64,000 nt of DNA, taken from contig JAWKJA010000002.1 of NCBI GenBank assembly GCA_041394025.1, forward strand, positions 1,454,541-1,518,540. The letters are read 5' to 3'. This stretch comes from Acidimicrobiia bacterium. Lineage in GTDB: Bacteria > Actinomycetota > Acidimicrobiia > IMCC26256 > JAOSJL01. The notes under the pieces are model-generated. The model did not search any database and was not told where the DNA came from. It was given only the letters and a program-made list of their open reading frames with translations. The translations under genes were made by a program, and so were the position numbers. Positions 4,391 to 61,938 of this stretch are shown here, piece by piece. How positions within the stretch are numbered: the first letter of the stretch is position 1; the number at the start of each line of letters is the position of its first letter.

Positions 4391-5674
4391 ATGATACGAC
4401 CTGTGCCCCGGGTGCTTCTCCTCCTGCCCACAACCACCTACAGAGCCCGCGACTTCCTGGAGGCGGCCGGTTCCCTGGGTGTCGAGGTGGTCGTCGGGTC
4501 CGACGGGCGCCAGGTCCTGGAGGACGTCACCGGGGCGAACACCCTGGTCCTCCCGCTCGGCGATCCCGACGAGAAGGGGGTGCGTGCGGCGGTGGACGCC
4601 ATCGTCGAGGCCAACACCCTCACGCCGTTCGACGCGATCGTCGGGGTCGACGACAGGGGCGTCGTCGCGGCAGCGGCGGCATCCGAGCGGTTGGGGCTCC
4701 CCGGCAATCACGTCGAAGCGGTACGCCGCACTCGTGACAAACGTGAGCAACGTCGCGCTTTCGGCGCTGCCGAGGTGCCACAGCCCGCGTACTCGGTCCT
4801 CGAGCCCGAGGATGTGCGCCGGCTGTGCGCCGGTGAGCACCTCGGCTCGGACGAGCTGGTCTCGTTCCCCGCGGTGATCAAGCCCCTCGGACTCTCCGGG
4901 AGCCAGGGCGTGATCCGTGTCGACCGGGAAGCCGATCTCCCCGCGGTCGCACAGCGGGTCGCACAGGTGGTCACGGGCGCGGAGGGGGGTGAAGCAACGG
5001 ACCCTCCGGAGCCGAGCCCATTGCTGCTCGAGGAGTTCGTGCCCGGACCCGAGGTGGCCGTGGAGGCCGTGGTCCGATCGGGGCAGGTTCGCGTTCTCGC
5101 CGTCTTCGACAAGCCCGACCCGCTCGACGGGCCCTACTTCGAGGAGACGATCTACGTGACCCCCAGTCGCCACTCCGAGGAGGACCTCCGCGACCTGGAA
5201 CGGGTGGTCGGTGCCGGGGTCGGCGCCCTAGGACTCACCGACGGGCCCGTGCACGCCGAGGCGCGGATCAGCGACCGGGGTGTGCGTCTCCTCGAGGTCG
5301 CCGCGCGGTCGATCGGCGGGCTGTGTGCACGTGCGCTGCGCTTCGGGGTGGGTGTCAGCCTCGAGGAGGTGATCCTCCGGCACGCCCTCCAGGACAGGCA
5401 GCCCGTCCTCGTCCCCGAGGGGGCGGCCTCCGGCGTGATGATGCTGCCGATCCCCCGCGCCGGAACCCTGCGTGATGTCCGCGGCGTCGAAGAGGCCCGT
5501 GCCGTGCCGGGTGTCGTGGGCCTCGAGACCACGATCCCGAGAGGCAGCACCGTCGAACCGCTCCCGGAGGGCGGCCGCTACCTCGGATTCGTGTTCGCCC
5601 GCGGAGCGAGCCCCGACGAGGTCGAGTCCACGCTGCGCACCGCCCACGGGAAGCTCACCATCGACATCACCTGA
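4391..5674 (+). CDS. ATP-grasp domain protein (amino-acid-ligase-like)
   Basis: ATG at 4391 (MIRPVPRVLLLLP). The longer track ORF from 4157 overlaps nfuA antisense. Pre-ATP-grasp Rossmann-like N-terminus, then FPAVIKPLGLSGSQGV and LLLEEFVPGPEVAVE blocks typical of ATP-grasp_4-type ligases. Confidence 0.75.
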   Translation: MIRPVPRVLLLLPTTTYRARDFLEAAGSLGVEVVVGSDGRQVLEDVTGANTLVLPLGDPDEKGVRAAVDAIVEANTLTPFDAIVGVDDRGVVAAAAASERLGLPGNHVEAVRRTRDKREQRRAFGAAEVPQPAYSVLEPEDVRRLCAGEHLGSDELVSFPAVIKPLGLSGSQGVIRVDREADLPAVAQRVAQVVTGAEGGEATDPPEPSPLLLEEFVPGPEVAVEAVVRSGQVRVLAVFDKPDPLDGPYFEETIYVTPSRHSEEDLRDLERVVGAGVGALGLTDGPVHAEARISDRGVRLLEVAARSIGGLCARALRFGVGVSLEEVILRHALQDRQPVLVPEGAASGVMMLPIPRAGTLRDVRGVEEARAVPGVVGLETTIPRGSTVEPLPEGGRYLGFVFARGASPDEVESTLRTAHGKLTIDIT

Positions 5675-11208: not shown

Positions 11209-12112
11209 GCCCGCGACGTCCGTCGACGGCCACTCCGGCAGCCACCGAGACGGTCACTCCGACGACGAGCTCACCGAGGAGCTGGCGGGCCTCGACGCGC
11301 TGGAAGTGGCCGTCCCACCGTCCCCCGGGCGGGCGACGCGCGCCTGGGCCGCCGCGTGGCCGAAACTGGCCGCTGCGCTCGTGGCGCTCGTCGCCTGGCA
11401 GCTGATCGTCTGGTCGGGGTGGCGCTCCACGGACGTCCTGCCCGGGCCCGGCCCGGTGTTCGAGACGCTCTGGGACGACCTGTGGAGCGGAGATCTCATC
11501 CTTGCCACGGCGCTCACGCTTCGTCGGGCCGTCCTCGGATTCGCACTCGGGATCGCCATCGGAACGCCGATCGGGATCGCCGTGGCGCGGGTGCGCGTCG
11601 TGCGGACGGCGGTCGGATCGGTCGTGACGAGTCTCCAGACCATGCCGTCGACCGCGTGGTTCCCGTTCGCGATCCTGCTCTTCTCGCAGTCGGAGACCGC
11701 CATCATGTTCGTGGTCGTGCTCGGCGCGGCTCCGGCCGTCGCCAACGGGCTCGTGGCCGGGATCGACCAGATCCCACCCAACCTCCTGCGTGCGGGACGC
11801 GTGCTCGGCGCGCGCGGGTGGACGGCTCTGCGTTACGTGGTGCTCCCGGCGGCCTACCCCCAGTACGTGGCGGGCCTCAAGCAGGGCTGGGCGTTCGCGT
11901 GGCGGAGCCTCATCGCCGGGGAGTTGATCGTGCAGGTGGCCGGCAGCGAGTCGATCGGTGTCCGGCTCCAGGACGCGCAGCGCAGCGACGACGCCACGGC
12001 GCTGCTCGCCACGATGGTCGTGATCCTCGTGATCGGGATCGCCGTCGACAGCCTCGGGTTCGGGACGCTCGAGCGACGGATCCGCCGCCGCTACGGGCTT
12101 GCGACCTCTTGA
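11195..12112 (+). CDS. ABC transporter permease (SsuC/TauC-like)
   Basis: Overlaps the ATPase gene by 14 nt. Six hydrophobic segments and a BPD_transp_1-like EAA loop region (LLRAGRVLGARGWTALRYVVLP). Its last 105 nt are duplicated at 16087-16191. Confidence 0.85.
   Translation: MCPIEPATSVDGHSGSHRDGHSDDELTEELAGLDALEVAVPPSPGRATRAWAAAWPKLAAALVALVAWQLIVWSGWRSTDVLPGPGPVFETLWDDLWSGDLILATALTLRRAVLGFALGIAIGTPIGIAVARVRVVRTAVGSVVTSLQTMPSTAWFPFAILLFSQSETAIMFVVVLGAAPAVANGLVAGIDQIPPNLLRAGRVLGARGWTALRYVVLPAAYPQYVAGLKQGWAFAWRSLIAGELIVQVAGSESIGVRLQDAQRSDDATALLATMVVILVIGIAVDSLGFGTLERRIRRRYGLATS
11992..12096. repeat. 105-bp direct repeat, left copy (attL-like; permease 3' end)
   Basis: Identical base for base to 16087-16191. 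The flanks diverge immediately on both sides. Confidence 0.85.
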
Positions 12113-12151
12113 GCCCTAGCCCAGCGGGCTCGCCGTGAATGACGTCGGCCC

Positions 12152-12397
12152 TCAGTCGCGCCGGCGGCGTTCTTCGTAGCGCCGCCGCCAGCGATGACCG
12201 ACACCACCCGGGCGGACAAGCCACCAGGTGAACAAGCCAGCACCGATCCCGAACCCAACGCACACGAGCGGGTAGTTGAAGTCGAACTGGAGCATGGAAT
12301 AGACGAAGCCGAACGCTCCGACGATCGAACCCGCTAGCCGCGGGTGTGCTGAAGCCCAGCGATACTCCTTCTCGTCGTACCTCTCGCGCTTCACCAC
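12152..12397 (-). CDS. candidate 2-TM immunity-like small protein (in frame with the RHS ORF; GTG at 12395-12397)
   Basis: VVKRERYDEKEYRWASAHPRLAGSIVGAFGFVYSMLQFDFNYPLVCVGFGIGAGLFTWWLVRPGG...RRRYEERRRRD: two hydrophobic helices and an Arg-rich tail. The stretch just upstream (about 12398-12560) has poor GC3 and Cys/Arg-rich translation, so it may be non-coding spacer. Confidence 0.3.
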   Translation of the reverse strand: MVKRERYDEKEYRWASAHPRLAGSIVGAFGFVYSMLQFDFNYPLVCVGFGIGAGLFTWWLVRPGGVGHRWRRRYEERRRRD

Positions 12398-13696
12398 CGC
12401 TACTTGCCCGACCCTGGGCACCGAACATCGACAAACGCGCCGACGGCGGTGACACCCAGATCCGAAATCGCTGCTGCTCGCGAGGCTCCTGCCGCACCCA
12501 AGGGCCCACCCACAGCTCCTCCAAAAAACGGGCAGCGCTGCCGCGCGTGCTACCCGCTGCCGCTTGCATGGCTTCTCGTCGAGTGCTTCAGAGGTCACGT
12601 TCAGGGCACTCCCCCCAGCTACAAGCGCTAGCCCGGCAGGCGGATTGGCGAACGTGACACCTGTGCCCAGCAAAACTCCACCAGTATCGACGGCCTTTGT
12701 GATCCCGACCCTATTTTCGCCGACCCAGTCGACGGCGTCGTCGAGGCAGTTCCCGAGGTCCCGCCACCCACATCCTCTGAGACCCATCGGGTCGACCAGA
12801 ACGCCGGGGCGGTTTCGGACGTAGGCGTATGACGACACCGACGGGCTGTCCGCAGAAGGTTGCAGTGGGTCGGTGGCGAGGAACCGGCCTGTCGATGGGT
12901 CGTACTGGCGGGCCCGAAGGTTGTAGAGGCCGGTCTCTTCATCAAGGTATTCGCCCGTGAAGCGCATCGGATTCGCCGGTGCTGACGGCTCGAGTTGTTC
13001 CGAACGACGCGCTGCACCGAATGGCTCATAGTCGTAGGAACATCGTGGCGTGCCGTCGGCGGAGGTGACGGCCGCAATGTTGCCGAGGTCGTTGCGGTGG
13101 AAGAACGACTCCCCGCCGGCTGCGCGCATCGAGATCGTGCTTTCGCCGAACACGTAGTCGCGCAACGGCACTCCGCCACCGTCGGACTCGCCAACCAGCT
13201 GTGGTACCGGGGCGTTCCGATCCCACAACGAGTAGGTCGTTCCGGTTTCGGTCGTGGCCGCGAGCCGGTTCCCGTCGGCGTCGTAGCTGTAGGCCACGTC
13301 GGTCGTGTGGGAACCCCCAACGAGTGAGGCGGACCCGGTGACGCCCGTGACGGTCTCCCCGATCTTGGTGACCTGGAGATCCCCATCGGTGATCGTTCCG
13401 TAGGCCTCGTAGTCTACGGCGCCTGACAGGGACAGGCTGACCTCGTCGTTGCCGGCACCGTTGTCGGTGACTGACCAGTCGAGGTTGACGAGTCCGAAGA
13501 AGCTGTAGGTGCTCGTCGCCCCATTCGCGCCGTCGGGTGTGACCTGTCCGAACCAGATCGGCACGGTGACGTCGACGCCAGCCTGTTGGTCGGTGACCCG
13601 AACGCTGCCGAAGTAGACCGGGAACAACCACAACGAGCGCACGTTGAACTCCACGTCGACCACTGAGCCCGTCGCCGGTTTCGACGCGCCCGTCAT
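12152..13696 (-). CDS. RHS repeat-associated core domain protein fragment with C-terminal polymorphic-toxin-like tail
   Basis: Contains YD-type repeats (VAYSYDADGNRLAAT, CSYDYEPFG). The RHS core end reads PMRFTGEYLDEETGLYNLRARQYDPSTGRFLATDP...VLVDPMGL, with DPxGL at 12779-12793. The 208 codons after it look heterogeneous. Only about 300 aa precede the core, so this is probably an orphan or truncated module. Confidence 0.75.
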   Translation of the reverse strand: MTGASKPATGSVVDVEFNVRSLWLFPVYFGSVRVTDQQAGVDVTVPIWFGQVTPDGANGATSTYSFFGLVNLDWSVTDNGAGNDEVSLSLSGAVDYEAYGTITDGDLQVTKIGETVTGVTGSASLVGGSHTTDVAYSYDADGNRLAATTETGTTYSLWDRNAPVPQLVGESDGGGVPLRDYVFGESTISMRAAGGESFFHRNDLGNIAAVTSADGTPRCSYDYEPFGAARRSEQLEPSAPANPMRFTGEYLDEETGLYNLRARQYDPSTGRFLATDPLQPSADSPSVSSYAYVRNRPGVLVDPMGLRGCGWRDLGNCLDDAVDWVGENRVGITKAVDTGGVLLGTGVTFANPPAGLALVAGGSALNVTSEALDEKPCKRQRVARAAALPVFWRSCGWALGCGRSLASSSDFGSGCHRRRRVCRCSVPRVGQVAVVKRERYDEKEYRWASAHPRLAGSIVGAFGFVYSMLQFDFNYPLVCVGFGIGAGLFTWWLVRPGGVGHRWRRRYEERRRRD

Positions 13697-13756
13697 TCGG
13701 TTGGCCAGATCATAGGTATAGGCCGTAGCGCCGGCGGCCGCAGCGCGCGACCAGAC

Positions 13757-13999
13757 CTAACGCCTGCGCCGCCGGTCGCCGAGCAGCAGGGCGGCGATAC
13801 CTGTACCGCACCAAACCGCCACGGCCACCGCAATCTTCCACCGGGCATCTTCTGACGGCCTGGCTTGGCCGAGCACCCAAGCCACCACCAGTGCACCAAG
13901 AGCTCCAGTCAAGAACAAGAAGACGGTACGTACCTTCCTCTCGAGCACGGGGCAATCGAGAGAATGGAAGAAACCCGGACCGCAGGTCTTGCAGCCCAT
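13757..13999 (-). CDS. small 2-TM protein with N-terminal CxxC...C motif (immunity-like)
   Basis: ATG at 13997-13999: MGCKTCGPGFFHSLDCPVLERK, then two TM helices and a tail GDRRRRR. Same architecture as the ORF at 12152-12397. Lower-GC codons. Lies directly upstream of the RHS fragment. Confidence 0.4.
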   Translation of the reverse strand: MGCKTCGPGFFHSLDCPVLERKVRTVFLFLTGALGALVVAWVLGQARPSEDARWKIAVAVAVWCGTGIAALLLGDRRRRR

Positions 14000-14063
14000 G
14001 ACTACTTGCCGCAACTCGGTTCTGGAGGTCCCCCGCTCTGACGGACAGGTTGGGTGTGGGTGA

Positions 14064-14937
14064 TCATGGGGCGTTGGTGGTTTCGTAGTCGAGGGGGCTG
14101 TGTCCGGCGTTGTAGCTGTGCCGGCGGCGGGGGTTGTACCAGGTTACGATCCATTCAGAAGATCGCGTGGGCGAGCTGGTCGCGGGTGTCCCAGTGGTGC
14201 TGGTCCAACAGCTCGCGTTGCAGGCTCGAGAAGAAGACCTCGGCGACGGAGTTGTCATACGCGTCGCCGATGGATCCCATCGATCCGAGCAGGCCGGCGT
14301 TGCGGAGCCGGTTGCCGAACAGCCATGACGTGTAGATCGACCCGTGATCCGAGTGTGCAACGGTTTGGCCTGCTGGAGGTCGCCGCCGCCAGGTAGCCAT
14401 CTGGAGTGCATCCGCGGCGAGCTCTGTGCGGATGTGATCCGCGATGGACCAGCCAACGACCCGGCGGGACCAGGCGTCGACCACAGCGGCGAGGTAGACG
14501 GTGCCTTCATCGGTGCGGTGCTCGGTGACGTCCATCACCCACAGGCGGTCGGGACCTTCGGGGTCGAAGCGTCGCTGCACGAGGTCGGGGTTCGGGTCCG
14601 TGCCGTCGCGGCGGGTGCAACCGTTCTTGCCTCGCCGGGACGGGTAGTGGATCCCCACCGCGCCGCAGTCACGCATCCAGCGTTCCACCTGGGTCTTGGA
14701 GCACCGCCGGCGCATCCCCAAGCGGAGCTCCTGAAGAACCCGAGGTGACCCATACGAGTGCCGAGACATCGTCCAAATGTCGAACACCGTGTTGGCCATC
14801 CAGGCGTCGTCGAGTTCGGCGTCAGTGACCGGTTCGGATCGACGCTGGAAAAAGCCCGCTCTCGACACCCCCATCACACGGCAGCACACCGCGACGGGCA
14901 GATCCGAGCAACGCTCGGCGATGAAGGTGTAGATCAT
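14064..14937 (-). pseudogene. IS3 family transposase OrfB (rve/DDE integrase core) with a 3'-terminal frameshift
   Basis: DDE core blocks LWVMDVTE and HSDHGSIYTS. This frame stops at 14155 after ...QLAHAIF. The conserved tail EWIVTWYNPRRRHSYNAGHSPLDYETTNAP continues in another frame down to 14064, which implies one extra nucleotide near 14155-14160. Confidence 0.8.
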
Positions 14938-15224
14938 TTTGGGAGGACGTTCTCCTGGGCGAAGTACGCCGCCGCAGGCTTGAGGATCTCGTTCTCCATC
15001 TTCGCCACGCGCAACTCACGGCGCAGCTTCACCAGCTCCTCGCGCTCAGCAGTGCTGAGACCACCAGAGCGCCGTCCCTCGTCGAGGTCAGCTTGGTGCA
15101 TCCAGTTCCGCAAGCAGCTGTCGGAGATCCCAAGATCGGTTGCGATCTCCGCCACGGGCTTCTCGCGCAACCGGGCCAACTCCACGGCTCGCTGACGAAA
15201 CTCCGGTGGGTGGGGTGCAGGCAT
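14934..15224 (-). CDS. IS3 family transposase OrfA (HTH)
   Basis: MPAPHPPEFRQRAVELARLREKPVAEIATDLGISDSCLRNWMHQ plus a leucine-zipper-like tail. Ends in CCAAAATGA, overlapping the orfB start. Confidence 0.85.
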   Translation of the reverse strand: MPAPHPPEFRQRAVELARLREKPVAEIATDLGISDSCLRNWMHQADLDEGRRSGGLSTAEREELVKLRRELRVAKMENEILKPAAAYFAQENVLPK

Positions 15225-15356
15225 CTGGACTCCTTCCCGAGACGACCCACAGTCGCCTCAGCATCGGTGTCCGTCAACCCGGGGGACCTCCACCTTCCTG
15301 ACCGGGGTTCGAGGTGACAGATCAGTGGTTCACCCTGGGTTTGATGGAGACTCGGT

Positions 15357-15482
15357 TCATTGGGTTCCAACCGTGTTGTGGTCGGTCTGTTGACCAGCGT
15401 AGAACGCTGCTTCGAGTTCTGCTGGTGGCATGTCGTGGCAGTGGCCGTGGAGACGCTGGTGGTTGATGGGATGAAGGAGCGG
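15357..15482 (-). pseudogene. remnant of a second rve-type transposase C-terminus
   Basis: Minus-strand translation ...PLLHPINHQRLHGHCHDMPPAELEAAFYAGQQTDHNTVGTQ* resembles the YNxxRxH...PAEFE tail of integrase-core transposases. No upstream catalytic domain is present. Confidence 0.35.
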
Positions 15483-15556
15483 GTCCTGCGCTCCTCGTGA
15501 GCCCGGCGTGCATGCTCGGGGGCTCACACCATGTTCACGAGGATGGGAGGGCCCTC

Positions 15557-16086
15557 ATGGCAGGGTACGTTCCGATTGATCTCCATCGCCGCCGTTCGGT
15601 GGTGATGCACATCGACTCCGCCGGTGAGATGCTGGGTTGGAAGCGGGTCGCCAACGAACCGGACGCGCTGGTGGCTGAGGTGCTCTAGCACGGCGAGTCT
15701 CCCGAGGTGGCGATTGAAGCCACCTACGGGTGGTACTGGGCGGTCGACGCGCTCTCGGCAGCCGGGTGCGAGGTGAAGCTGGTCAACGTTGCTGCGGTGC
15801 GCGGGTTCGAGAATCGCCGGGTGAAAAATGACGTGCGGGACTGCGAGCTGTTGGGCCAGTTGATGCGCACGAACACGCTGCCCGAGGCGTGGATGGCCCG
15901 GAGCGAGGTACGCGAGCAGCGGGAGCTGGTCCGCTATCGGGCCAAGCTGGTGGCTGTGCGTACCGGGTCCAAAGCCCAGGTCCACTCGGCGTTCGCCAAG
16001 CTGGGCATCCAGGCTTGCTGGTCGGACATGTTCGGTCCCTCGGGCCGCCAAGAACAGGAACGTGAGCCGTGCCTCGAACGTGAAGG
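15557..16086 (+). pseudogene. IS110 family transposase, N-terminal DEDD domain only (in-frame TAG at 15686-15688; 3' truncated at the repeat)
   Basis: MAGYVPIDLHRRRSVVMHIDSAG...AEVL*HGESPEVAIEATYGWYWAVDALSAAGCEVKLVNVAAVRGFENRRVKNDVRDCELLGQLMRT...LVRYRAKLVAVRT matches the IS110 N-domain pattern. The C-terminal domain is absent. The ORF runs directly into the 105-bp permease repeat. Confidence 0.7.
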
Positions 16087-16191
16087 CGCCACGGCGCTGC
16101 TCGCCACGATGGTCGTGATCCTCGTGATCGGGATCGCCGTCGACAGCCTCGGGTTCGGGACGCTCGAGCGACGGATCCGCCGCCGCTACGG
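16087..16191. repeat. 105-bp direct repeat, right copy (attR-like)
   Basis: Identical to 11992-12096. Followed by ggtctcgccaccccgtag (GLATP*), which is synonymous with but differs from the tail after the left copy. Confidence 0.85.
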
Positions 16192-16225
16192 TCTCGCCAC
16201 CCCGTAGCGCGACGAAACCGCGCCG

Positions 16226-18607: not shown

Positions 18608-20673
18608 GCCGGTACCTCCGGTGTCTCGGGGAGTGCGTCCGTTGCCACGTCGGAGCGGCGGACGCGGTGCAGCGCACTCTTCGCCGACGGGCCGACGGCG
18701 ACCAGGGTCCCGAGGAACATCACGCCGCCGCCGATCCAGAGCCACAGGACCATCGGGTTCACGGCCACGCCGAGCGTGACGCGCCCCGACTCGTTGGGCG
18801 ACGAGATCAACGTGAGGTACACGTCGCGCGTGACGCCGGTGCGCACCGAGGGGGTGCCGATACCCTGGGTGCTGTTCGGGAACGTGGAGATCGCAGGCGC
18901 GTAGACACCGAGGTCGTCGCCCCCCCTTTCCACCCGCACACGTGCCGAGCTCGTGGCCTTCTGTGCGGTCGTCGACGTCTCGCTCCCGAGATAGGTGACC
19001 GTGTAGCCCGCCACCGTGGCCGACTCACCCTCGGCGAGCCGGACCTCGCGGCTGGTCGACCAGTGGGCGCCCACCGAGATGGCGAGGGCGACGAGCACCA
19101 CCCCGACGTGCACGACGAGGCCGCCGTACCTGCGCGGGTTGCCGGTGACCGTGCGGAGAAGTGCCGTCGGGACCGCCTCGTCGTGGCCACGGCGACGCGA
19201 CCGCACCGCCACGACGAACTGCTGCACGATCCCGGCGAGGGCGAAGGCGGCGAGGCCGAAGACGAGGATCTGGGCGACGCCGCGGGTGCCGAACAGGACG
19301 GCGACGGCCATGGTGGCCGCCCCGGTCCAGGCCGGCACCCGGAACCGCCGTTGGAGCACGTCACCCGAGGCCGCACGCCACGGCAGAGCGGGGGCGGCGG
19401 CCATGAGGAAGAGGAGCGCCAGCCCGATGGGAAGAGTCATCCGGTCGAAGTACGGCTCACCGACCGACAACTGCCGCTCCTGGAAGGCCTCGACGAGCAG
19501 CGGGAACACGGTGCCGAGCAGCACGACGAAGGCGAACGCCGCGAACAGGAGGTTGTTGGCCAGAAACGCCGACTCGCGCGACACGATGCTGTCGATCCGA
19601 CCCGGCGAGCGCAACAGGTCGCCGCGCCACGCGATGAGCCCGATCCCCACGACGGCGGTGATGCCGAGGAACGCGAGCAGCATCGGCCCGATGCCCGACT
19701 CCGTGAAGGAGTGGACGCTGTTCACCACACCCGAACGCGTGAGGAACGTGCCGAGGATCGTGAGACAGAACGTGGCGATGAGAAGCGACAGGTTCCAGAC
19801 CCGGAGCATCCCCCGGCGCTCCTGCACCATCACGGAGTGGATGTAGGCCGTGCCGGTGAGCCACGGAAGGAGTGACGCGTTCTCGACGGGGTCCCACGCC
19901 CAGTAGCCGCCCCAGCCGAGGACCTCGTAGCTCCACCATCCGCCGAGGACGATCCCCGCTGTGAGAAAACCCCAGGCCAGCACAGCAGCGCGGCGGGTCT
20001 CGATGAGCCAGCCCTCGCCGAGCCGGCCGGTGACGAGCGCCGCCACGGCGAACATGAACGGCACGGTGAAGCCGACGTAGCCCAGGTACAGCATCGGCGG
20101 ATGGACCGCCATGAGAGGGTGGTTCTGGAGCAGCGGGTTCGGTCCCGGGCCGTCGGGGGGAACGACACCCGACACGAGCCGAAACGGGTTGGCGGGACCC
20201 AGGACGAGAAGGAAGAAGAAGAGCGCCACGACGAGACCCGTGATCGTCGCCCACGCGACGAGCGGGTCGGTGGCACGGTCGCGGAACCGCCACGCCGTGT
20301 GGGCCAGGTAGCCGGCGAGGATCAGGACCCACAGGAGGATCGAGCCCTCGAGCGACGCCCACAGGGACGCCACGGTGTAGAAGACCGGCGTGGCGCGCGA
20401 GCCGTTGGCGGCCACGTACTCCAGGGAGAAGTCGTGGCTCAGCAGTGCCCATTCCATGACGAGCGCTGCCACGACCGCGGCCACGAGCACCGCGAACACG
20501 AAGCGGCGCCCCAGCAGCAGGAGGCGGTCGTCGCCGCGGTGCAAACCGACGCCGAGGGCCGTGATGCCGAGAGCACAGGCGGCGGCACCCCACACGAGGG
20601 CGCCGTATCCGATCGCCGCCTTCACCGGCGCAGGCTGGGGGCGCCGGGGCCCCGACGACTCATGGGGCGTCAC
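18604..20673 (-). CDS. ccmF: cytochrome c heme lyase subunit CcmF
   Basis: 689-aa polytopic protein with WWD domain WGGYWAWDPVENASLLPW. The start may be the internal GTG at VKAAIGY. Confidence 0.9.
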   Translation of the reverse strand: MTPHESSGPRRPQPAPVKAAIGYGALVWGAAACALGITALGVGLHRGDDRLLLLGRRFVFAVLVAAVVAALVMEWALLSHDFSLEYVAANGSRATPVFYTVASLWASLEGSILLWVLILAGYLAHTAWRFRDRATDPLVAWATITGLVVALFFFLLVLGPANPFRLVSGVVPPDGPGPNPLLQNHPLMAVHPPMLYLGYVGFTVPFMFAVAALVTGRLGEGWLIETRRAAVLAWGFLTAGIVLGGWWSYEVLGWGGYWAWDPVENASLLPWLTGTAYIHSVMVQERRGMLRVWNLSLLIATFCLTILGTFLTRSGVVNSVHSFTESGIGPMLLAFLGITAVVGIGLIAWRGDLLRSPGRIDSIVSRESAFLANNLLFAAFAFVVLLGTVFPLLVEAFQERQLSVGEPYFDRMTLPIGLALLFLMAAAPALPWRAASGDVLQRRFRVPAWTGAATMAVAVLFGTRGVAQILVFGLAAFALAGIVQQFVVAVRSRRRGHDEAVPTALLRTVTGNPRRYGGLVVHVGVVLVALAISVGAHWSTSREVRLAEGESATVAGYTVTYLGSETSTTAQKATSSARVRVERGGDDLGVYAPAISTFPNSTQGIGTPSVRTGVTRDVYLTLISSPNESGRVTLGVAVNPMVLWLWIGGGVMFLGTLVAVGPSAKSALHRVRRSDVATDALPETPEVPA

Positions 20674-21124
20674 CCTCCGACGTCGCCGCGTCCGACGACG
20701 GCTCCTCGTCGGTGTTCACCTCGGGCGGTGAGTACTCGTTGCCGTGGTTGATGAGGATCCGGTCGGAGCGAAACGTCACGAAGTCGTCGGACCACTCCCC
20801 TTCGGTCACCACGGGGGCGCCCTCGGCGAACAGGTCGGGCGGGTCGCCACGGTGGACGACCTCGACGGTCGCGGTGCCGTCGGTGACCTCGAAGGTGACG
20901 CCGTCGTCGGTCTCGGCAACGGTCCCGGGCACGACCTCACCGGCGAGGCGCACCCGTCCGCTGTCCTGTTCCGCCACGGCCTCCGACACGGTCCGGAAGT
21001 AGACGATGTTGCCGCGCAGGCCTCCGAACACGAGGAAGGCCACCGCGCCCACACAGGCGAGTGCGGCTGCGACGTAGAGCCACCGTCGACCCCGGACGGC
21101 GCGCGGCGAGGCCTGCGACGTCAC
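20660..21124 (-). CDS. ccmE: cytochrome c maturation heme chaperone CcmE
   Basis: GTG at 21122-21124, 6 nt after GGGAGG. TM, then an OB fold. Heme-binding HxxxY is present as NHGNEY. The longer track ORF is Arg-rich upstream. Confidence 0.85.
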   Translation of the reverse strand: MTSQASPRAVRGRRWLYVAAALACVGAVAFLVFGGLRGNIVYFRTVSEAVAEQDSGRVRLAGEVVPGTVAETDDGVTFEVTDGTATVEVVHRGDPPDLFAEGAPVVTEGEWSDDFVTFRSDRILINHGNEYSPPEVNTDEEPSSDAATSEGDAP

Positions 21125-21276
21125 GGGCGCCCCTCCCGCGCCCGGACACGGGTGAGGTCCTCGTCGGTCATCGAGGCGCGGACCCTCCGGAAGCGCCACG
21201 CCATCCACGCGACATACGCGACGAGGACGACCACCGTGACGACGTACCCCGCGAGCACGTACCCCGCATCGCTCAC
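21121..21276 (-). CDS. ccmD: heme exporter protein CcmD (51 aa; below the ORF-track cutoff)
   Basis: VSDAGYVLAGYVVTVVVLVAYVAWMAWRFRRVRASMTDEDLTRVRAREGRP*. Single TM. GGGAGA lies 6 nt upstream. GTGA overlaps with both the ccmC stop and the ccmE start. Confidence 0.6.
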   Translation of the reverse strand: MSDAGYVLAGYVVTVVVLVAYVAWMAWRFRRVRASMTDEDLTRVRAREGRP

Positions 21277-22058
21277 CGGTCGTCTCCCACACCCGCGACC
21301 GCCGGGCCGGCCGACGCGGCGCTGTTCGCCGCACCGGCATCGGCGCTCGCGATCCGATCCGCTATCGCGGCCTCGAGCTCACGCTCGTCGTGGCCCTCCT
21401 CGAGGCGGGCGAGTTGCACCCGACGCGCCATGAGGTAGCCGTAGGCGAGCGTGAAGGCCACGACGGCGAATGCCAGCGTCCAAGCCATCGTCCCCTCGAT
21501 CTGCGCGTCGAGCTCGGGGTTGAACACGGTCGCCTCCTGGTGGAGGGTGCGCCACCAGTTCACCGAGAAGTGCACGATCGGCACGTCGACGAAGGCGATG
21601 AGCGCCGCGATCGCGGCGCGTCGGGCCCGCACGTCGGGATCGGCCGGCACGCGCCGCAGCGCCAGGTAGCCGAGATACAGGAAGAACAGCACCGCGGTGG
21701 TGACGAGCCGGGCGTCCCACACCCACCACGTTCCCCACACGGGACGGCCCCAGAGCGAGCCGAGCACGAGCGTGAGCCCCGTGAACACCACGCCGATCTC
21801 GGCCGACGCACCGGCGAGAAGATCCCAGTCGAGGCGGCGCGTGCGCGGCCAGAGGTAGAGAAGTGACGCCACGGCGGTGACGAAGAACGCCAGGTACGCC
21901 AGCCACGCCGCCGGCACATGGACGTACATGAGCCGTTGCGCGTCGCCCTGCACGGCGTCGGCGGGCGCGACCCCCAGCGCGAGAACGCCGAGGACGAACA
22001 GGGCCAGCAGCGTGACGAGACCCAGGATGTTCACCGCGGGCCGGGCCAGCGAGATCAT
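21273..22058 (-). CDS. ccmC: heme exporter protein CcmC
   Basis: ATG at 22056-22058 (MISLARPAV) forms an ATGA overlap with the ccmB stop. WWD motif WGTWWVWDARL. Acidic/Ala-rich C-terminal extension of about 50 aa. Confidence 0.9.
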   Translation of the reverse strand: MISLARPAVNILGLVTLLALFVLGVLALGVAPADAVQGDAQRLMYVHVPAAWLAYLAFFVTAVASLLYLWPRTRRLDWDLLAGASAEIGVVFTGLTLVLGSLWGRPVWGTWWVWDARLVTTAVLFFLYLGYLALRRVPADPDVRARRAAIAALIAFVDVPIVHFSVNWWRTLHQEATVFNPELDAQIEGTMAWTLAFAVVAFTLAYGYLMARRVQLARLEEGHDERELEAAIADRIASADAGAANSAASAGPAVAGVGDDR

Positions 22059-22729
22059 GCGTCCTCCAACAGGGAGCCGAAGGCGAGAACCCCCAGCCCC
22101 ACGTACAACACGGCGAACAGCCCGAGGAGCTGGACCCACGGCCATGCCTCGGACGGCACGCCGTCGAGCCCCGCCTCGAACGCCCGCGTGGCCCCCAGCA
22201 TGACCGGCGCAACCACGGGAAGCAGCAACAGGGGCACCAGCGTCTCGCGCGTGCGCAGGCCGGCGGCGAGCACCCCGAAGAGCGTACCGGTGGCCGCGAC
22301 GCCGACGGTCGCGGCCAGGGCCGTGAGGGCGAGGATCCCGAGGCTTCGCAGCGCCATGTCGTAGAAGACGACGACACCGACACCGAGCACGACCTCCAGA
22401 GCCAGGAGCTCGATGCTCACGGCGAGCGCCTTGCCGAGGAACACGGACGCACCGTCGATGCCGGAGAGGCGAAGTCCGTCGAGAGCGCCGTGCTCGGTCT
22501 CCAGTGCGAAAGAGCGTGAGACCGCGAGCACCGCGGCCAGCAGTACGGCGACCCAGAACAGCCCGGGGGCCACGACGGGGAGCAGGCCGCGGTCGGGGTC
22601 GAGGGCGAAGGCGAACAGCAGCAGCACGACGGCGCCGAACGGCAGGACCTGGTTGAGCGTGACCCGTGAGCGGGCCTCGATGCGCAGGTCCTTGGCGGCG
22701 ACGAGCCACACCTCACGGACGAGGCTCAT
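22055..22729 (-). CDS. ccmB: heme exporter permease CcmB
   Basis: 224-aa six-TM protein in the ccmB position, with an ATGA overlap with ccmA. Confidence 0.85.
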   Translation of the reverse strand: MSLVREVWLVAAKDLRIEARSRVTLNQVLPFGAVVLLLFAFALDPDRGLLPVVAPGLFWVAVLLAAVLAVSRSFALETEHGALDGLRLSGIDGASVFLGKALAVSIELLALEVVLGVGVVVFYDMALRSLGILALTALAATVGVAATGTLFGVLAAGLRTRETLVPLLLLPVVAPVMLGATRAFEAGLDGVPSEAWPWVQLLGLFAVLYVGLGVLAFGSLLEDA

Positions 22730-23391
22730 GGGCGTGGTCCCGGTGCGTCGCCCGTCGGTGCGGCCGCGACGGGGTGCGCGCGGCCGCCGACGACGCGGAC
22801 CTCGCGGTCCGCCAGCGACCGCACGCGCTCGGTCTCGTGCGAGGCGATGATGACGGTCGTGCCGTGATCGGGCGCCGCGCGCACGATCCCGTCGAGAACG
22901 GCCCGCCCATCAGGGTCGAGCCCGGCGTGGGGCTCGTCGAGGAGCAGCAGCTCGGGGTGGCCGGTGAGCGCCACGGCCAGTGCGAGGCGGCGGCGCTGGC
23001 CGGCCGACAGCTTCTGGTGGGTGACGGCCGCCTGCGCGTCGAGTCCGACCCGCGAGAGATGGTCGTCCGCCGACGAGGCGTCGTTTCCCGCTGCCCGCGC
23101 GGCGAAACGCAGGTTCTCCCGCACGGTCAGGTCGTCGTAGCACAGCGTGTCGTGCGCCATGAGCCCGAGGAGGTGTCGGTGGCTTCGCCGGTCACGGGCA
23201 AGGTCGACACCCAGGACCTCGGCCTCACCCGACCGCAACCGGACGAGGCCGGCCAGCAACCGCAGGATCGTGGTCTTGCCCGCTCCGTTGGGGCCGCTGA
23301 GCAGCACGATCTCGCCTCGGCTCACGTCGAGGTCGGCGCCCGCCAGAGCGGGGAAGCGACCGAGGAGACAGACAGCGGCGCGGAGGCGCAC
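22726..23391 (-). CDS. ccmA: heme exporter ATPase CcmA
   Basis: GTG at 23389-23391 chosen; TTG at 23403 is possible. Walker A GPNGAGKTT, signature LSAGQRRRL, Walker B LLLDEP. The longer track ORF upstream is not credible. Confidence 0.85.
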   Translation of the reverse strand: MRLRAAVCLLGRFPALAGADLDVSRGEIVLLSGPNGAGKTTILRLLAGLVRLRSGEAEVLGVDLARDRRSHRHLLGLMAHDTLCYDDLTVRENLRFAARAAGNDASSADDHLSRVGLDAQAAVTHQKLSAGQRRRLALAVALTGHPELLLLDEPHAGLDPDGRAVLDGIVRAAPDHGTTVIIASHETERVRSLADREVRVVGGRAHPVAAAPTGDAPGPRP

Positions 23392-23566
23392 AGCGAGCGG
23401 CAACGGACCCTCAAGGGCCGGGAAACGGTGCCGAAAGTGTAAGGAGCGCCCCGTGAACCCGTCGAACCGGCATGTGGACGCCGCCGCCGGACCGTGGGAG
23501 GTCGCACGACCCGGTGGTGAGCCGGACTGCCCCGAATGTCCCGGTAGGATTCGCCCCGTGCCCGAG

Positions 23567-24766
23567 ATGGACGACATGCCCGACGAGACCACCGCGTCCG
23601 AGACCACTGCGTCGTCCTCGGCGCCCGTCGCAACGGCGTCGACGGCCACGGCCACCCCGACCACGACGACGGAGCGCCCGGCAGCAGACGGCGACACCGG
23701 CCCCTCCCGGCAGCCGGGGCGCACCGGCGACGGCGGCTCCGGCGGCGACGAGCCTCCCGGGGAGACACCCGACCCCGAATCCGGCTCCTCCCGGCCCCGC
23801 GACACCGGCATCCGGGCGGTGGTCGGCTTCATCGGCCGTGGCCTCATCACGCTCGGAATCCTCGTTCTCCTGTTCGTCGCCTACCAGCTCTGGGGAACAG
23901 CAATCTACGAGGCGCGCGCCCAGAACCAGCTCGAGACCGACTTCGAGCAGCGTCTCCAGGAGGTCGAATCGAACGCCACGGAGAACCAGGCGCCCGACGA
24001 CCTGGGCGGGGCCGAGGGTGAGAACGGATCGTTCCTCGACGAGCCCGTTCCCGCCTCGTCGTTCACCGAGGGTGAGGCCGCCTTCAAGATCGAGATCCCC
24101 GATGCCGGTGTCGACAGGATCGTCGTGCAGGGCGTGTCGATCCCCGACCTGCGCAAGGGCCCGGGCCACTACGAGTTCACCCCGATGCCCGGTGAGATCG
24201 GTAACGCCGCCATCGCCGGTCACCGCACCACCTACGGCCAGCCCTTCCACAACCTCGACAAGCTCGAGCCGGGCGACGAGGTCACCACCACGACCCTCAG
24301 CGGCACCTTCGTCTACGACGTCGTGAAGACCGAGGTCGTCCAACCCACCGACGTCGACGTGCTCGAGCCCCCCGGCAAGAACACCTACGTCGGCGACGAA
24401 ATCCCCGAGGGCGGGGCGATGCTCACGCTCACCACCTGCAACCCGAAGTACTCGGCGGCGGAGCGCCTCGTGGTGTTCGCGGCGCTCAACCCCTCGAAGA
24501 GCCCCGAGGCGCAACCGCCGAGCGTCGACGTCACCCTGGGGGCAGAGCGCACCACGATCGACTCGGCGGGCCTGTCGGGTGAGTCCGGGAGCCGGATGCC
24601 CACCTACGTCTTCGGCCTGGTCGTGGCCGCCGTGGGGGCGCTGTGGTACTTCGCCTTCCGGCGCTGGCGGCACTGGTACACGTGGTTCGCCGGCGCCATT
24701 CCGTTCCTGGCCGTTCTCTTCTTCTTCTACACCTACCTCGAGCGCGTCCTCCCCGGAAACTACTGA
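23567..24766 (+). CDS. class E-like sortase (membrane-anchored transpeptidase)
   Basis: ATG at 23567. Low-complexity N-terminus, one TM, catalytic His (IAGHRTTYG), TLxTC motif MLTLTTCNP, and C-terminal TM segments. Confidence 0.85.
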   Translation: MDDMPDETTASETTASSSAPVATASTATATPTTTTERPAADGDTGPSRQPGRTGDGGSGGDEPPGETPDPESGSSRPRDTGIRAVVGFIGRGLITLGILVLLFVAYQLWGTAIYEARAQNQLETDFEQRLQEVESNATENQAPDDLGGAEGENGSFLDEPVPASSFTEGEAAFKIEIPDAGVDRIVVQGVSIPDLRKGPGHYEFTPMPGEIGNAAIAGHRTTYGQPFHNLDKLEPGDEVTTTTLSGTFVYDVVKTEVVQPTDVDVLEPPGKNTYVGDEIPEGGAMLTLTTCNPKYSAAERLVVFAALNPSKSPEAQPPSVDVTLGAERTTIDSAGLSGESGSRMPTYVFGLVVAAVGALWYFAFRRWRHWYTWFAGAIPFLAVLFFFYTYLERVLPGNY

Positions 24767-27339: not shown

Positions 27340-28029
27340 TCACGCGTCGAACCGGTAGCCGACACCCCACACGGTCGAGATCCTGGTCGGGTTCGACGGC
27401 TCGTCCTCGATCTTCTCGCGCAACCGGCGGATGTGCACGGTCACCGTCGACGCGTCGCCGTAGCTGTAGCCCCACACCCTCTCCAGGAGCTCGTCGCGTC
27501 GGAAGGCAACCCCCGGATGGGTGGTGAGGAAGGCCAGGAGGTCGAACTCCCGTGCGGTGAGTGGGACCTCCGCACCGCCGCGCTCCACCGTGCGGGCACC
27601 CGTGTCGATCACCAGGTCGCCGAACGTGACGGGTTCCACCGGATCGGGAGTGGGCGCGTGGGTGCGGCGCAGGACGGCCCTGATGCGGGCCATGAGCTCC
27701 CGGGGTGAGAACGGCTTCGTCACGTAGTCGTCGGCGCCGTACTCGAGCCCGCACAGACGGTCCTCCTCCTCGCCCTTGGCCGTGAGTATGACGACAGGAA
27801 CCGGGCCGGCGTCACGGAGGCGGCGACACACCTCCAGACCATCCATGTCGGGGAGCATGAGGTCGAGCACGGCGAGGTCGGGGCGACGGGCGTCGGCCTC
27901 CCTCACGGCGGCCTCACCGCTGTCGAGGGCGCACACGTCGTATCCATCGCGTTCGAGATACCGCACGACGACCTCCGAGACCGTCGGGTCGTCCTCGACG
28001 ACGAGCACGCGGCGGGTCGGCGTGGTCAT
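27340..28029 (-). CDS. OmpR-family response regulator
   Basis: ATG at 28027-28029. RVLVVEDD, LDLMLPDMDG, winged-helix tail STVWGVGYRF. Confidence 0.9.
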   Translation of the reverse strand: MTTPTRRVLVVEDDPTVSEVVVRYLERDGYDVCALDSGEAAVREADARRPDLAVLDLMLPDMDGLEVCRRLRDAGPVPVVILTAKGEEEDRLCGLEYGADDYVTKPFSPRELMARIRAVLRRTHAPTPDPVEPVTFGDLVIDTGARTVERGGAEVPLTAREFDLLAFLTTHPGVAFRRDELLERVWGYSYGDASTVTVHIRRLREKIEDEPSNPTRISTVWGVGYRFDA

Positions 28030-28031
28030 GG

Positions 28032-29471
28032 TCACCACCGGGTCCGGATCCCGGTCTGTACGGCGAGGGCAACGAGCGCCTGTGCTGCGAGCCATCCCCG
28101 CAGCACCGCGGCCCGCGGCACGCGTCCGATGAGGGCGGAGGCCGCCGGGAGGAGCCAGACGGCGAACGGCAGCCAGATCCGCTCCACCTCCCCCTTCGAG
28201 AAGCCCGAGAGGTCGGCGACGGCGACAGCAGCCAGCGCTCCTCCCACGAGCAGCCAGAGCTTGCGGTCGCCCAGGCACGCCAGTCCTGCGGCGGTGGCGG
28301 GGCCCACCACCAGGCCGAGGGCGGCGATGTTGGCCCAGAGGAAATAGCCGTAGGGCCGGGTCGAGGCCACGCTCTCGTAGTACTCGGCACGCGACGTCGA
28401 CCACCCGTCGAGATACGAGAAGCCGGCCAGCCAGAAGACGCCGAGGACCAGCAGTGCTCCCGCAGTCGCCACGAACAGGGGCCGCGGCCGGCGGCGCGCC
28501 GCCGCCACGCCGGTAGGGACGAGCGCGACGAGCGCCACGCCGTACGACAGCATCAGGGCCGCACCGAAGAGCAGTCCCCCTGAGGCGCTCGCGATGTCGG
28601 AGCGACGCCCGGACCGGCCCGTACCCACGATCACCGCTGCCACGGCGGCGGCCGAGACACCGGCGATCAGGGCATCGGCGCTCGTGGCGATCCACACCGC
28701 TACCGGAGCCAGAACGAGGAACGGTGCCGCCGCGCGTGCCCGCTGCTCGCCCGCTACCTCCCGGACCGCCACGAGGACGGCGGGGACGGCCAGCGCGCCA
28801 CCGGCGATGAACAGCACGGCGGCCCAAGCCCGGCCTCCGAGGCCCACTTCGTCGAGCGACCAGAGAGTGAGCAGTGTGCCCGGCGGATGTGAGCGGACGT
28901 GGGTGACGTAGCTGTCGATGTCGTCGGTGAAGCCCGACAGGAAGTCGCCGGGCGAGCCGACCCGGTCGACGTCGAGCAGGTACTCGTCGCCCGGAAGCGT
29001 CGTGGGGTCCGTGATGCCGTCGAGACCGTCGGTGAACGCCAGCGCCACCGCCCAGACGGCCGCGGCGATCGCCGCCGCGGCGAGGAGTGTGCGCCACGGC
29101 AGCGCGCGAACCGCACGCGGCGCACCGACGATGACAGCCAGGGCCACGGCAACCGGCACGACGACACGCACGCCGAGGCGGAGGTCGTCCCACCCCACGA
29201 TCGGAGGTGCGCTGAGCCGCAGCGCCTCGCGACCGAGGTCATCGATGAGGTGCTGTCCCCACAGCCGGGCGGCCACGATCAGGAGACCCCACGCCACCAC
29301 GGCGGCGGTGGCGCGGTAGGCCGGCCGGGACCACCACGGGCGCGCCGGCGACACGGCGGACGAGCCCGGCGGGCCCTCGTGCTCGGCGGTCCGGACGGGC
29401 GTGTCGCCCTCCGCCGCCCCGGCGGAGCTCTCGGAGTGGACCCCAGGGGTCGACACGTCTGTGCGGGGCAC
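28032..29471 (-). CDS. polytopic membrane protein, GT-C-fold glycosyltransferase-like
   Basis: About 10-12 hydrophobic segments. An acidic first loop (FTDGLDGITD, DEYLLDVD) is followed by VRSHPPGTLL, resembling the DE...HPPL signature of PMT/ArnT-type enzymes. Context includes a GT2 polyprenyl-P-sugar synthase-like gene. Confidence 0.55.
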   Translation of the reverse strand: MPRTDVSTPGVHSESSAGAAEGDTPVRTAEHEGPPGSSAVSPARPWWSRPAYRATAAVVAWGLLIVAARLWGQHLIDDLGREALRLSAPPIVGWDDLRLGVRVVVPVAVALAVIVGAPRAVRALPWRTLLAAAAIAAAVWAVALAFTDGLDGITDPTTLPGDEYLLDVDRVGSPGDFLSGFTDDIDSYVTHVRSHPPGTLLTLWSLDEVGLGGRAWAAVLFIAGGALAVPAVLVAVREVAGEQRARAAAPFLVLAPVAVWIATSADALIAGVSAAAVAAVIVGTGRSGRRSDIASASGGLLFGAALMLSYGVALVALVPTGVAAARRRPRPLFVATAGALLVLGVFWLAGFSYLDGWSTSRAEYYESVASTRPYGYFLWANIAALGLVVGPATAAGLACLGDRKLWLLVGGALAAVAVADLSGFSKGEVERIWLPFAVWLLPAASALIGRVPRAAVLRGWLAAQALVALAVQTGIRTRW

Positions 29472-40859: not shown

Positions 40860-40923
40860 CGACGCGTCGCCACCGGCGGGCGGGGTTCGGGCGGGACCCC
40901 GTCGTCAGCCGTTCCGCTCCGCT

Positions 40924-41019
40924 CTAGTACCAGAAGCCACGGCGGGTTCCACCCACGAGGAGCAGTCCTGCCGCGGCCGTCGCAAGGACGGTCAGTCGGA
41001 CAGACAGGGTTTGCACCAT
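40924..41019 (-). CDS. candidate 31-aa hydrophobic small protein
   Basis: GAAGGAGGG sits 7 nt before the ATG. Product MVQTLSVRLTVLATAAAGLLLVGGTRRGFWY*. Lies 65 nt upstream of the HD-GYP-like gene on the same strand. Below the ORF-track cutoff. Confidence 0.35.
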   Translation of the reverse strand: MVQTLSVRLTVLATAAAGLLLVGGTRRGFWY

Positions 41020-61618: not shown

Positions 61619-61659
61619 GCGACGCCCGGGAGAGGCCGACCGACCGGAAGGAACGAGCC

Positions 61660-61938
61660 GTGTGCCTTGTCGTCCTGGTGGGTGCCTTCGCACCCCGATT
61701 CGCGATCTTCCTCGTCTGGCTGTTCAGCAATCGCATGGCGCTGGCGTTCGACAGCTTCTGGATCGCCCTGGCCGGGTTCGTCTTCCTGCCGTTCACCACG
61801 CTGCTCTACGCCATCGCCTACCAGCCCATCGTCGGTGTGAGCGGCTTCGGCTGGTTCCTCGTGGGCATGGGCTTCGTGCTCGACATCGCCAACTGGTTGG
61901 GTGGCGCTCGCCAGAGAGACCAGCGCCGCTACGACTGA
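61660..61938 (+). CDS. small 3-TM membrane protein
   Basis: GTG start. Hydrophobic 92-aa product with a basic tail. Confidence 0.5.
   Translation: MCLVVLVGAFAPRFAIFLVWLFSNRMALAFDSFWIALAGFVFLPFTTLLYAIAYQPIVGVSGFGWFLVGMGFVLDIANWLGGARQRDQRRYD

Follow-up and report, generated by a model that had tools for sequence, protein, structure and literature searches.

A probable remnant of an Rhs toxin/immunity array, with an orphan C-terminal tip and two small candidate immunity genes, in an Acidimicrobiia genome

Within a 64-kb stretch of DNA (64,000 nucleotides of contig JAWKJA010000002.1, assembly GCA_041394025.1; hereafter the window) from an Acidimicrobiia metagenome-assembled genome (MAG), a minus-strand open reading frame (ORF) of 514 codons at positions 12152-13696, with its ATG at 13696, encodes the end of an Rhs protein. 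We propose that the locus is probably a silent, decaying remnant of an Rhs polymorphic-toxin (rhs-CT/immunity) array, where CT denotes the variable C-terminal region. The rhs fragment keeps the last ~325 residues of the YD shell and an intact self-cleavage core ending in DPMGL, followed by a variable tip without relatives. It stands between two short frames, here called mini1 (upstream) and mini2 (fused in frame at its end), each of which may encode a small membrane protein. An identical NCBI protein (P0001, 503 amino acids [aa] from a GTG start) is annotated as "RHS repeat-associated core domain-containing protein."

Judged from its sequence, the rhs gene is 5'-truncated, because Rhs-homologous coding sequence extends beyond any usable start. 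The frame opens at 13756, right after a TAG (13757-13759) that doubles as the stop codon of mini1 in the same frame as rhs, and its stop-to-stop translation is 534 aa long. The 20 codons ahead of the first ATG read VWSRAAAAGATAYTYDLANR and form a YD-repeat motif, of which AYTYDLANRMT aligns with a YD repeat of the homologue P0008. No Shine-Dalgarno-like motif was found before ATG 13696 or GTG 13663. At the other end, the NCBIfam profile of the RHS-associated core (TIGR03696) matches aa 243-326 of the stop-to-stop translation with 76.1 bits (cutoff, 32.5; E 2e-21), the YD_repeat_2x profile likewise matches the fragment, and the motif PGVLVDPMGL at aa 317-326 fits PxxxxDPxGL; RARQYDPSTGRF is also present. 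The core end is preceded by ~306 aa when counted from the ATG, or by ~326 aa before the cleavage site when counted from stop to stop. This agrees with an earlier note, made from the letters alone, that had described about 300 aa ahead of an RHS core end and had taken the ORF for an orphan or displaced C-terminal module.

The comparison with known shells supports the same description. Solved Rhs and Tc-toxin shells in the PDB align through their last ~100 to 245 residues only, and every alignment ends at query residue 325/326. In PDB entry 8h8a, residues 908-1151 of 1152 align with the fragment, and in the Tse5 shell residues 1019-1121 of 1121 align with aa 217-326 (E 4e-9). The fragment thus covers only the last ~245 residues of a shell of more than 1100 aa, set in an insertion riddled with insertion sequences (IS), and the fragment falls short of the long YD-repeat shell (~1000 aa or more) for toxin encapsulation. 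An ORF long enough for a full-length Rhs protein (>1000 aa) was not found within the window, and a scan of the genome contigs found no relative. No N-terminal secretion or trafficking domain (signal peptide, PAAR, LXG, etc.) was matched; the frame is closed by TAG 13757, with YD homology up to the truncation point. Core identity to homologues is 45 to 53%, and the best non-self database protein reaches 53% identity over 32% of the query, with no close paralogue. Relatives of the whole ORF were not found in GTDB species genomes or in JGI metagenome contigs. AlphaFold2, run with a 64-sequence alignment, is confident for aa 150-348 only, which correspond to the β-strands of the shell end and one helix; aa 29-148 and 350-524 have pLDDT confidence values of 30 to 40.

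A codon log-likelihood score (LLR), trained on 37 kb of confident genes of the window, divides the ORF into a mosaic (Table 1). In-frame stretches of 30 codons average 0.49 ± 0.31 and off-frame stretches −0.59 ± 0.58.

Table 1. Features of the rhs remnant and its surroundings, with codon LLR and GC content at third codon positions (GC3) for the segments of the ORF
Feature	Position	Strand	LLR	GC3	Remarks
Left direct-repeat copy	11987-12106	+			3' end of the intact ABC permease gene
mini2	12152-12400	-	0.31	0.78	Candidate cognate immunity gene fused in frame; last 82 codons; tail RWRRRYEERRRRD; possible GTG starts at 12398 and 12395
Middle stretch, Cys/Arg-rich	12401-12559	-	-0.58	0.66	53 codons without coding signal in any frame; LLR typical of off-frame DNA
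Terminator-like GC hairpin and T6 run, followed directly by GGAGGAG	12516-12544	-			Consensus scan and fold
Proximal CT	12560-12778	-	-0.04	0.67	Candidate toxin tip, first 73 CT residues (~73 aa), RGCGWRDLGNCLDDAVDW...GGVLLGTGVTFANPPAGLALVAGGSALNVTSEALDEKPCKRQ; codon score as Rhs core; no homologues
DPMGL	12779-12793	-			End of PxxxxDPxGL: Rhs self-cleavage boundary and start of variable C-terminal region; read from the sequence; all PDB and NCBIfam alignments end at 325/326
Rhs core (homology-proven)	12779-13051	-	0.03	0.68	
rhs 5' part	13052-13756	-	0.47	0.85	
5'-truncated rhs fragment	12779-13756	-			Degenerate YD repeats and RHS-associated core; TIGR03696, homologues, PDB shells, codon score
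mini1	13757-14014	-			Candidate immunity gene of a lost upstream module; 80 aa (ATG 13999) or 85 aa (TTG 14014)
IS3-family element	14023-15292	-			HTH_Tnp_1 and rve matches; abuts mini1
IS110-family (DEDD) transposase remnant	15497-16081	+			DEDD_Tnp_IS110, E 5e-12, profile positions 54-150 only
Right direct-repeat copy	16082-16201	+			Detached permease 3' end, contiguous with the native downstream cyclophilin gene

The region beyond DPMGL comprises 208 residues. When these residues were compared exhaustively by phmmer with 1.84 billion representative proteins, the only hits were the protein itself and two artefacts (P0102 and P0103), which we rejected as homologues of the CT and mini2 since their matches arise from internal repeats of the subject proteins. 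The CT, its sub-segments, mini1 and mini2 match nothing in Pfam (down to E 5), NCBIfam or the PDB sequences, and local BLAST of the CT against the CTs of ~50 Rhs homologues gave nothing significant. A CT with a known non-toxic domain, mini-ORFs devoid of signal and conservation of the whole 514-aa product had been named beforehand as observations that would speak against an orphan toxin module. What we found is a tip without a match to any known domain, toxic or non-toxic, mini-ORFs with a coding or architectural signal, and a 514-aa product that is conserved as a unit nowhere in the databases searched. Within the tip, AlphaFold2 places a helix at aa 331-348, with low confidence further on. 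The earlier suggestion that the CT is glycine-zipper-like and may be membrane active did not survive a test of the patterns (G/A/S)xxxGxxxG and GxxxGxxx(G/S/T): the first 75 CT residues contain one such motif (GVLLGTGVT), a number reached by 41% of shuffled sequences, and the proximal CT is weakly hydrophobic (maximum Kyte-Doolittle hydropathy over 19 residues [KD19], 1.41).

The middle stretch separates the proximal CT from mini2. It had been described as poor in GC3 and Cys/Arg-rich; its GC3 is in fact close to that of its neighbours (0.66 versus 0.67 to 0.68), but arginine and cysteine do make up 27% of its residues and its codon score collapses. It was probably once an intergenic spacer, or is decayed sequence, in which the frame has remained open. 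Given the base composition, 53 codons stay open by chance with P ~0.25, which makes it plausible, if not the default, that the CT and a small gene downstream were fused in frame by accident. No alternative frame across 12400-12600 is gene-like, the best being frame +2 at about −0.03. A frameshift model, in which a gene starting at ATG 12569 or GTG 12509 shifts into mini2, is neither supported nor excluded. An intrinsic terminator at 12544-12523 was considered and not retained: the consensus scan gave 5 sites against 2.4 ± 1.9 expected, and the z-score of the fold is −0.36, neither of which is exceptional.

The two mini-proteins flank the rhs fragment. For mini1, the architecture reported in the earlier note was confirmed: the frame at 13757-13999 encodes a CxxC...C pattern, two hydrophobic 19-mers (KD 2.3 and 2.2) and an arginine tail (DRRRRR), and AlphaFold2 models the product as a helical hairpin (helices at 17-45 and 52-79; mean pLDDT, 71). 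Its frame is the best of the six. Among the 226 stop-to-stop ORFs of 70 to 130 codons in all six frames of the window, the architecture with two hydrophobic segments occurs in two, mini1 and one well-scoring membrane-protein gene, and mini1 is therefore unlike the spurious GC-rich ORFs found here. No homologue of mini1 was found by a metagenome contig scan or by a word-indexed protein search, which did not return mini1 itself either, so that mini1 perhaps lies outside the protein collection. Membership of mini1 in the SLATT group was rejected, with SLATT_3 scoring 15.5 bits in Pfam (cutoff, 26.3; E 0.02) and 13.7 in NCBIfam (cutoff, 45), below threshold in both.

The second mini-protein had been seen as a clean protein with two transmembrane (TM) segments. 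Its codons are gene-like (98th percentile of small ORFs), and two hydrophobic segments and the tail RRRYEERRRRD are present, but only one segment is good (KD19 maximum, 1.72) and the first is weaker (about 1.2). AlphaFold2 is not confident of mini2 in the context of the fusion. The gene-like 82 codons follow the CT in the same open frame after the 53 non-coding-like codons. A match between mini2 and the CT of P0047 (46% identity over 26 aa) has an E value of 8e-4 only within a 50-sequence database and was taken as chance. The two mini-proteins are alike in architecture and in their Arg-rich tails only; they share no sequence similarity (BLASTP E 2.4), and the resemblance proposed for them holds to that extent.

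Homologous actinobacterial rhs loci offer a template for this arrangement. About 10 of the ~50 Rhs homologues have Gly/Ala-rich, hydrophobic CTs. In L081, a 75-aa ORF with two TM segments comes after rhs gene P0008, whose CT is hydrophobic. In L083, downstream of rhs gene P0032 come, in order, a 3-TM ORF of 101 aa, an orphan rhs fragment of 361 aa, a second 3-TM ORF (126 aa) and another orphan fragment. In L084 (GCA_040961345.1), P0043 precedes a 160-aa ORF with two TM segments and a 379-aa orphan (P0034), and in L085 a 189-aa 3-TM ORF follows P0035. The ORF downstream of rhs in L086 is soluble. Since small TM ORFs and orphan fragments recur in these loci, the order of TM ORF, orphan rhs fragment and TM ORF seen in the window is, by sequence comparison, the normal array layout in this Rhs clade. 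The likeness to L083 and L084 extends to homologous Rhs cores (29 to 44% identity overall, higher in the core), to the succession of rhs, a small 2-3-TM ORF, an orphan rhs of ~360 to 380 aa and a small TM ORF, and to several Gly/Ala-rich, hydrophobic CTs. Unlike the window, both arrays retain a long main rhs gene and have separate immunity-type ORFs. Local BLAST detected no similarity between the small proteins and CTs of these loci and the CT, mini1 or mini2 of the window. In L083 (1-7524) and L084 (1-6560), the main rhs gene is split into two or three ORFs ahead of the arrays of small multi-TM ORFs and orphans, and L083 has a short rhs scrap (AYTYDQNGNE...) at 4834-5142 between modules.

We therefore favour a history, put forward by analogy with such loci, in which the original array would have comprised an rhs-CT, an immunity gene, an orphan rhs-CT and a second immunity gene. 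The main rhs gene would have been lost, plausibly through a deletion associated with the IS3 element, since that element lacks a target duplication. Under this scheme mini1 would be the immunity gene of the preceding module removed by that deletion, and the orphan tip would have mini2 as its cognate gene for a small membrane immunity protein. Tip and mini2 would now share one frame only because no in-frame stop happens to occur in the ~53 codons of the spacer, in this GC-rich DNA. The earlier idea of a toxin/immunity array with fusion by decay stands in so far as loci L081, L083, L084 and L085 offer the analogy and the spacer resembles non-coding DNA. The two mini-proteins are homologous neither to each other nor to anything else. 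The fragment should not be exportable as a toxin, because it has no N-terminal delivery region, most of the shell is missing and translation-start signals are not recognizable; it is most likely non-functional as a toxin and probably not expressed. At most it may serve as a reservoir for recombination, and immunity might still come from mini1 and mini2.

Several observations weigh against a decaying array. The main rhs gene was not found, so the array is inferred, not seen. The CT, mini1 and mini2 all lack homologues, and conservation therefore cannot back any of them as functional genes; the codon LLR of mini1 is borderline (−0.01), and the glycine-zipper motif is not enriched in the CT. The LLR falls to −0.29 within the proven Rhs core too, so that a low codon score alone is no proof of non-coding sequence. 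NCBI annotates a single protein, mini2 lacks an isolated start and a clear Shine-Dalgarno sequence, and the prior for an accidental fusion in frame is only ~0.08 (0.25 that the spacer is open × 1/3 that the frame is shared). These last three points are also what an alternative hypothesis draws upon, namely that all 208 residues form a single CT domain, in which the mini2 part is a membrane-inserting hydrophobic hairpin as in Tse5-CT, and that the immunity gene was lost or is mini1. The frame is indeed continuous to 12152, no convincing ribosome-binding site precedes mini2, and Tse5-CT itself has TM regions (PMC9637101). We nevertheless consider a one-piece toxin unlikely, given that the middle 53 codons score −0.58 against −0.04 and +0.31 at their sides and are Cys/Arg-rich like off-frame translation, that the terminator-like hairpin and GGAGGAG lie within them, that aa 350-524 have no AlphaFold2 structure, and that the homologous loci have separate small TM ORFs after the rhs stop codon.

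At the opposite extreme, only the rhs fragment would be real: both mini-proteins would come from accidental open frames in GC-rich DNA, from about residue 400 onward the sequence would be decayed or non-coding, and no immunity genes would be left. The lack of homologues of mini1 and mini2, the failure to recover mini1 in its own protein search and its LLR fit this proposal, as do the frequency with which open frames of at least 85 codons arise by composition (P ~0.11) and the presence of at least three damaged genes in the island. It is nonetheless improbable in view of the gene-like codon score of mini2, the rarity of two strongly hydrophobic segments among the small ORFs of the window, the hairpin modelled for mini1 and the small TM ORFs that hold the same positions in homologous loci. 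As the source is a MAG, the assembly could also hold indel errors or a chimeric join. The island could then be such a join, made through the repeated 3' end of the permease gene and through IS copies, with some of the frameshifts being sequencing errors and with the rhs fragment not truly belonging at this place. The 106 identical bases in the flanking repeat with strain-like synonymous differences just beyond, the IS elements at the joins and the single-base frameshift and nonsense lesions in IS3 and IS110 would all suit an artefact. The contig is 1.6 Mb long, however, and the neighbouring genes are intact and syntenic with relatives, which makes this explanation very unlikely; it is not exclusive of the other readings, and even with a chimeric join the rhs fragment would still be 5'-truncated beside mini1 and IS3.

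An orphan module of this kind has known counterparts. In orphan rhs-CT/rhsI modules, initiation signals are lacking and core sequence ahead of DPxGL is kept (Poole et al. 2011, PMC3150448); silent orphan cassettes occur downstream of rhs genes in Enterobacteriaceae (PMC3150448), and orphan rhs are found in Salmonella (PMC7043789). Like the modules of Enterobacteriaceae, the locus described here has a 5'-truncated rhs with core sequence upstream of PxxxxDPxGL and no evident translation-start signals, and a variable CT followed by a putative small ORF, with another small ORF just upstream. It differs in that no full-length rhs adjoins it or occurs in the window, an IS3 being found where one would be expected, that no CT of a full-length Rhs protein is related to its own, and that its putative immunity ORF forms part of an in-frame fusion. 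The host also differs, being an uncultured member of the Acidimicrobiia (a Gram-positive lineage) and not a proteobacterium bearing a type VI secretion system (T6SS). Among Gram-positive bacteria, WapA-type YD-repeat toxins are YD/Rhs-family polymorphic toxins whose immunity gene lies downstream. WapA, however, is full length, and the fragment in the window lacks the signal peptide and the wall-binding region that WapA has.

If the tip were active, our guess is that it would be a membrane-directed toxin of the Tse5/Tsi5 type, because both putative immunity proteins would be located in the membrane. Tse5 (RhsP1) of Pseudomonas aeruginosa is an Rhs-delivered pore-former that depolarizes membranes, and Tsi5, which gives immunity to it, is predicted to have two TM regions (PMC9637101; PMC10684867; see also PMC12744356). 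The two systems resemble each other in an Rhs core that ends in the cleavage motif, in a CT with no predicted enzymatic domain and, putatively, in immunity proteins with two TM helices. In contrast, neither the CTs nor the immunity proteins share sequence similarity, the proximal CT is only weakly hydrophobic, PAAR, VgrG and T6SS context are absent here, and the fragment is truncated and probably not expressed. The parallel is a functional analogy only, as tests of sequence membership and of motifs failed. A tentative and rather unlikely extension is that the tip (~73 aa, or all 208 aa) and an Arg-tailed 2-TM partner represent an undescribed family in Actinobacteria of Rhs-delivered membrane-acting toxins paired with membrane immunity proteins. 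If true, the loci that combine a Gly/Ala-rich CT with a small multi-TM ORF (L081, L083, L084 and L085) would be sequence-divergent members of the same functional class. A tip shown to be toxic would bring a further sequence-unique CT and 2-TM immunity pair into the group of membrane-targeting systems exemplified by Tse5/Tsi5. For the public 503-aa record, a better description would be that of a truncated orphan cassette to which a gene for a small membrane protein has probably been fused. The locus would extend to uncultured Acidimicrobiia an orphan rhs-CT/immunity arrangement familiar from Proteobacteria, with little consequence beyond annotation.

Two further features of the rhs fragment deserve mention. 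A sharp compositional switch lies at ~13052 inside the ORF, with GC3 of 0.85 and host-like codons upstream and GC3 of 0.68 from the core onward, as expected if core and tip were swapped in as a cassette. The segment at 13303-13690 (aa 29-148) has a strong coding signal, yet Rhs homologues can be aligned across it only with long gaps; it may consist of degenerate YD repeats (in phmmer, aa 67 onward align with the 8h8a shell) or be an insert. A word-indexed protein search with the N-terminal 131 aa found nothing, a weak negative, as the identical P0001 was missed too; negatives from short queries in this search, including that for mini1, call for caution.

The remnant belongs to an island of ~4.1 kb (12107-16081) whose GC content is 0.65, against 0.70 to 0.73 in its surroundings and 0.68 to 0.74 (high) in the window. 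It is located between an ABC permease gene and a cyclophilin (peptidyl-prolyl isomerase) gene, and contains at least three damaged genes. On gene order, the segment is a lineage-specific insertion, because the permease is followed by the cyclophilin gene in four relatives from the Acidimicrobiia/Actinomycetota, with a gap of 36 bp in L001 and of ~700 to 830 bp in L006, L008 and L022. The order aconitase, ABC ATPase, permease, cyclophilin, TPR and CcmH is common to these four, in whole or in part. A 120-nt direct repeat brackets the island, and 106 nt are identical between its two copies; the left copy departs from the right one by synonymous variants in its final four codons (GLATS-stop versus GLATP-stop). 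This duplication of the permease end is reminiscent of the attL/attR sites of an integrative element by which a gene end is restored; no integrase remains.

The IS3 element has terminal inverted repeats of 25 nt with TG...CA ends (14023-14047 and 15268-15292). It shows no target-site duplication, the flanks being TTC and CCT. Its orfB has a 1-nt frameshift near the 3' end (an extra T near 14157) that leaves the last ~30 codons out of frame, and the Pfam rve_2 match is divided over two frames. The IS110 remnant carries an in-frame TAG (15686-15688), and its C-terminal half is lost at the junction with the right-hand repeat. IS110 elements carry a guide (bridge) RNA in their upstream non-coding region, which here corresponds to 15293-15557. 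A minus-strand ORF at 15357-15527, guessed to be another transposase fragment, has no Pfam support and was set aside.

Elsewhere in the window, a scan with Rfam at gathering thresholds found no family, tRNA included, while ARAGORN predicted a 93-nt tRNA-Gly(acc) at 11731-11823 inside the permease gene, probably a false positive, and a tRNA-Ser(cga) at 42640-42725. A further small Arg-tailed membrane protein, with no link to the rhs remnant, is encoded by a 118-codon ORF at 61582-61938 (+ strand) that has three hydrophobic segments, an Arg-rich tail (ARQRDQRRYD), a strong codon score (0.62) and no Pfam match. At 19000-24000, 28000-29000 and 40000-41000, 1-kb windows have a strongly positive AT skew (0.19 to 0.33), far above the rest of the window.

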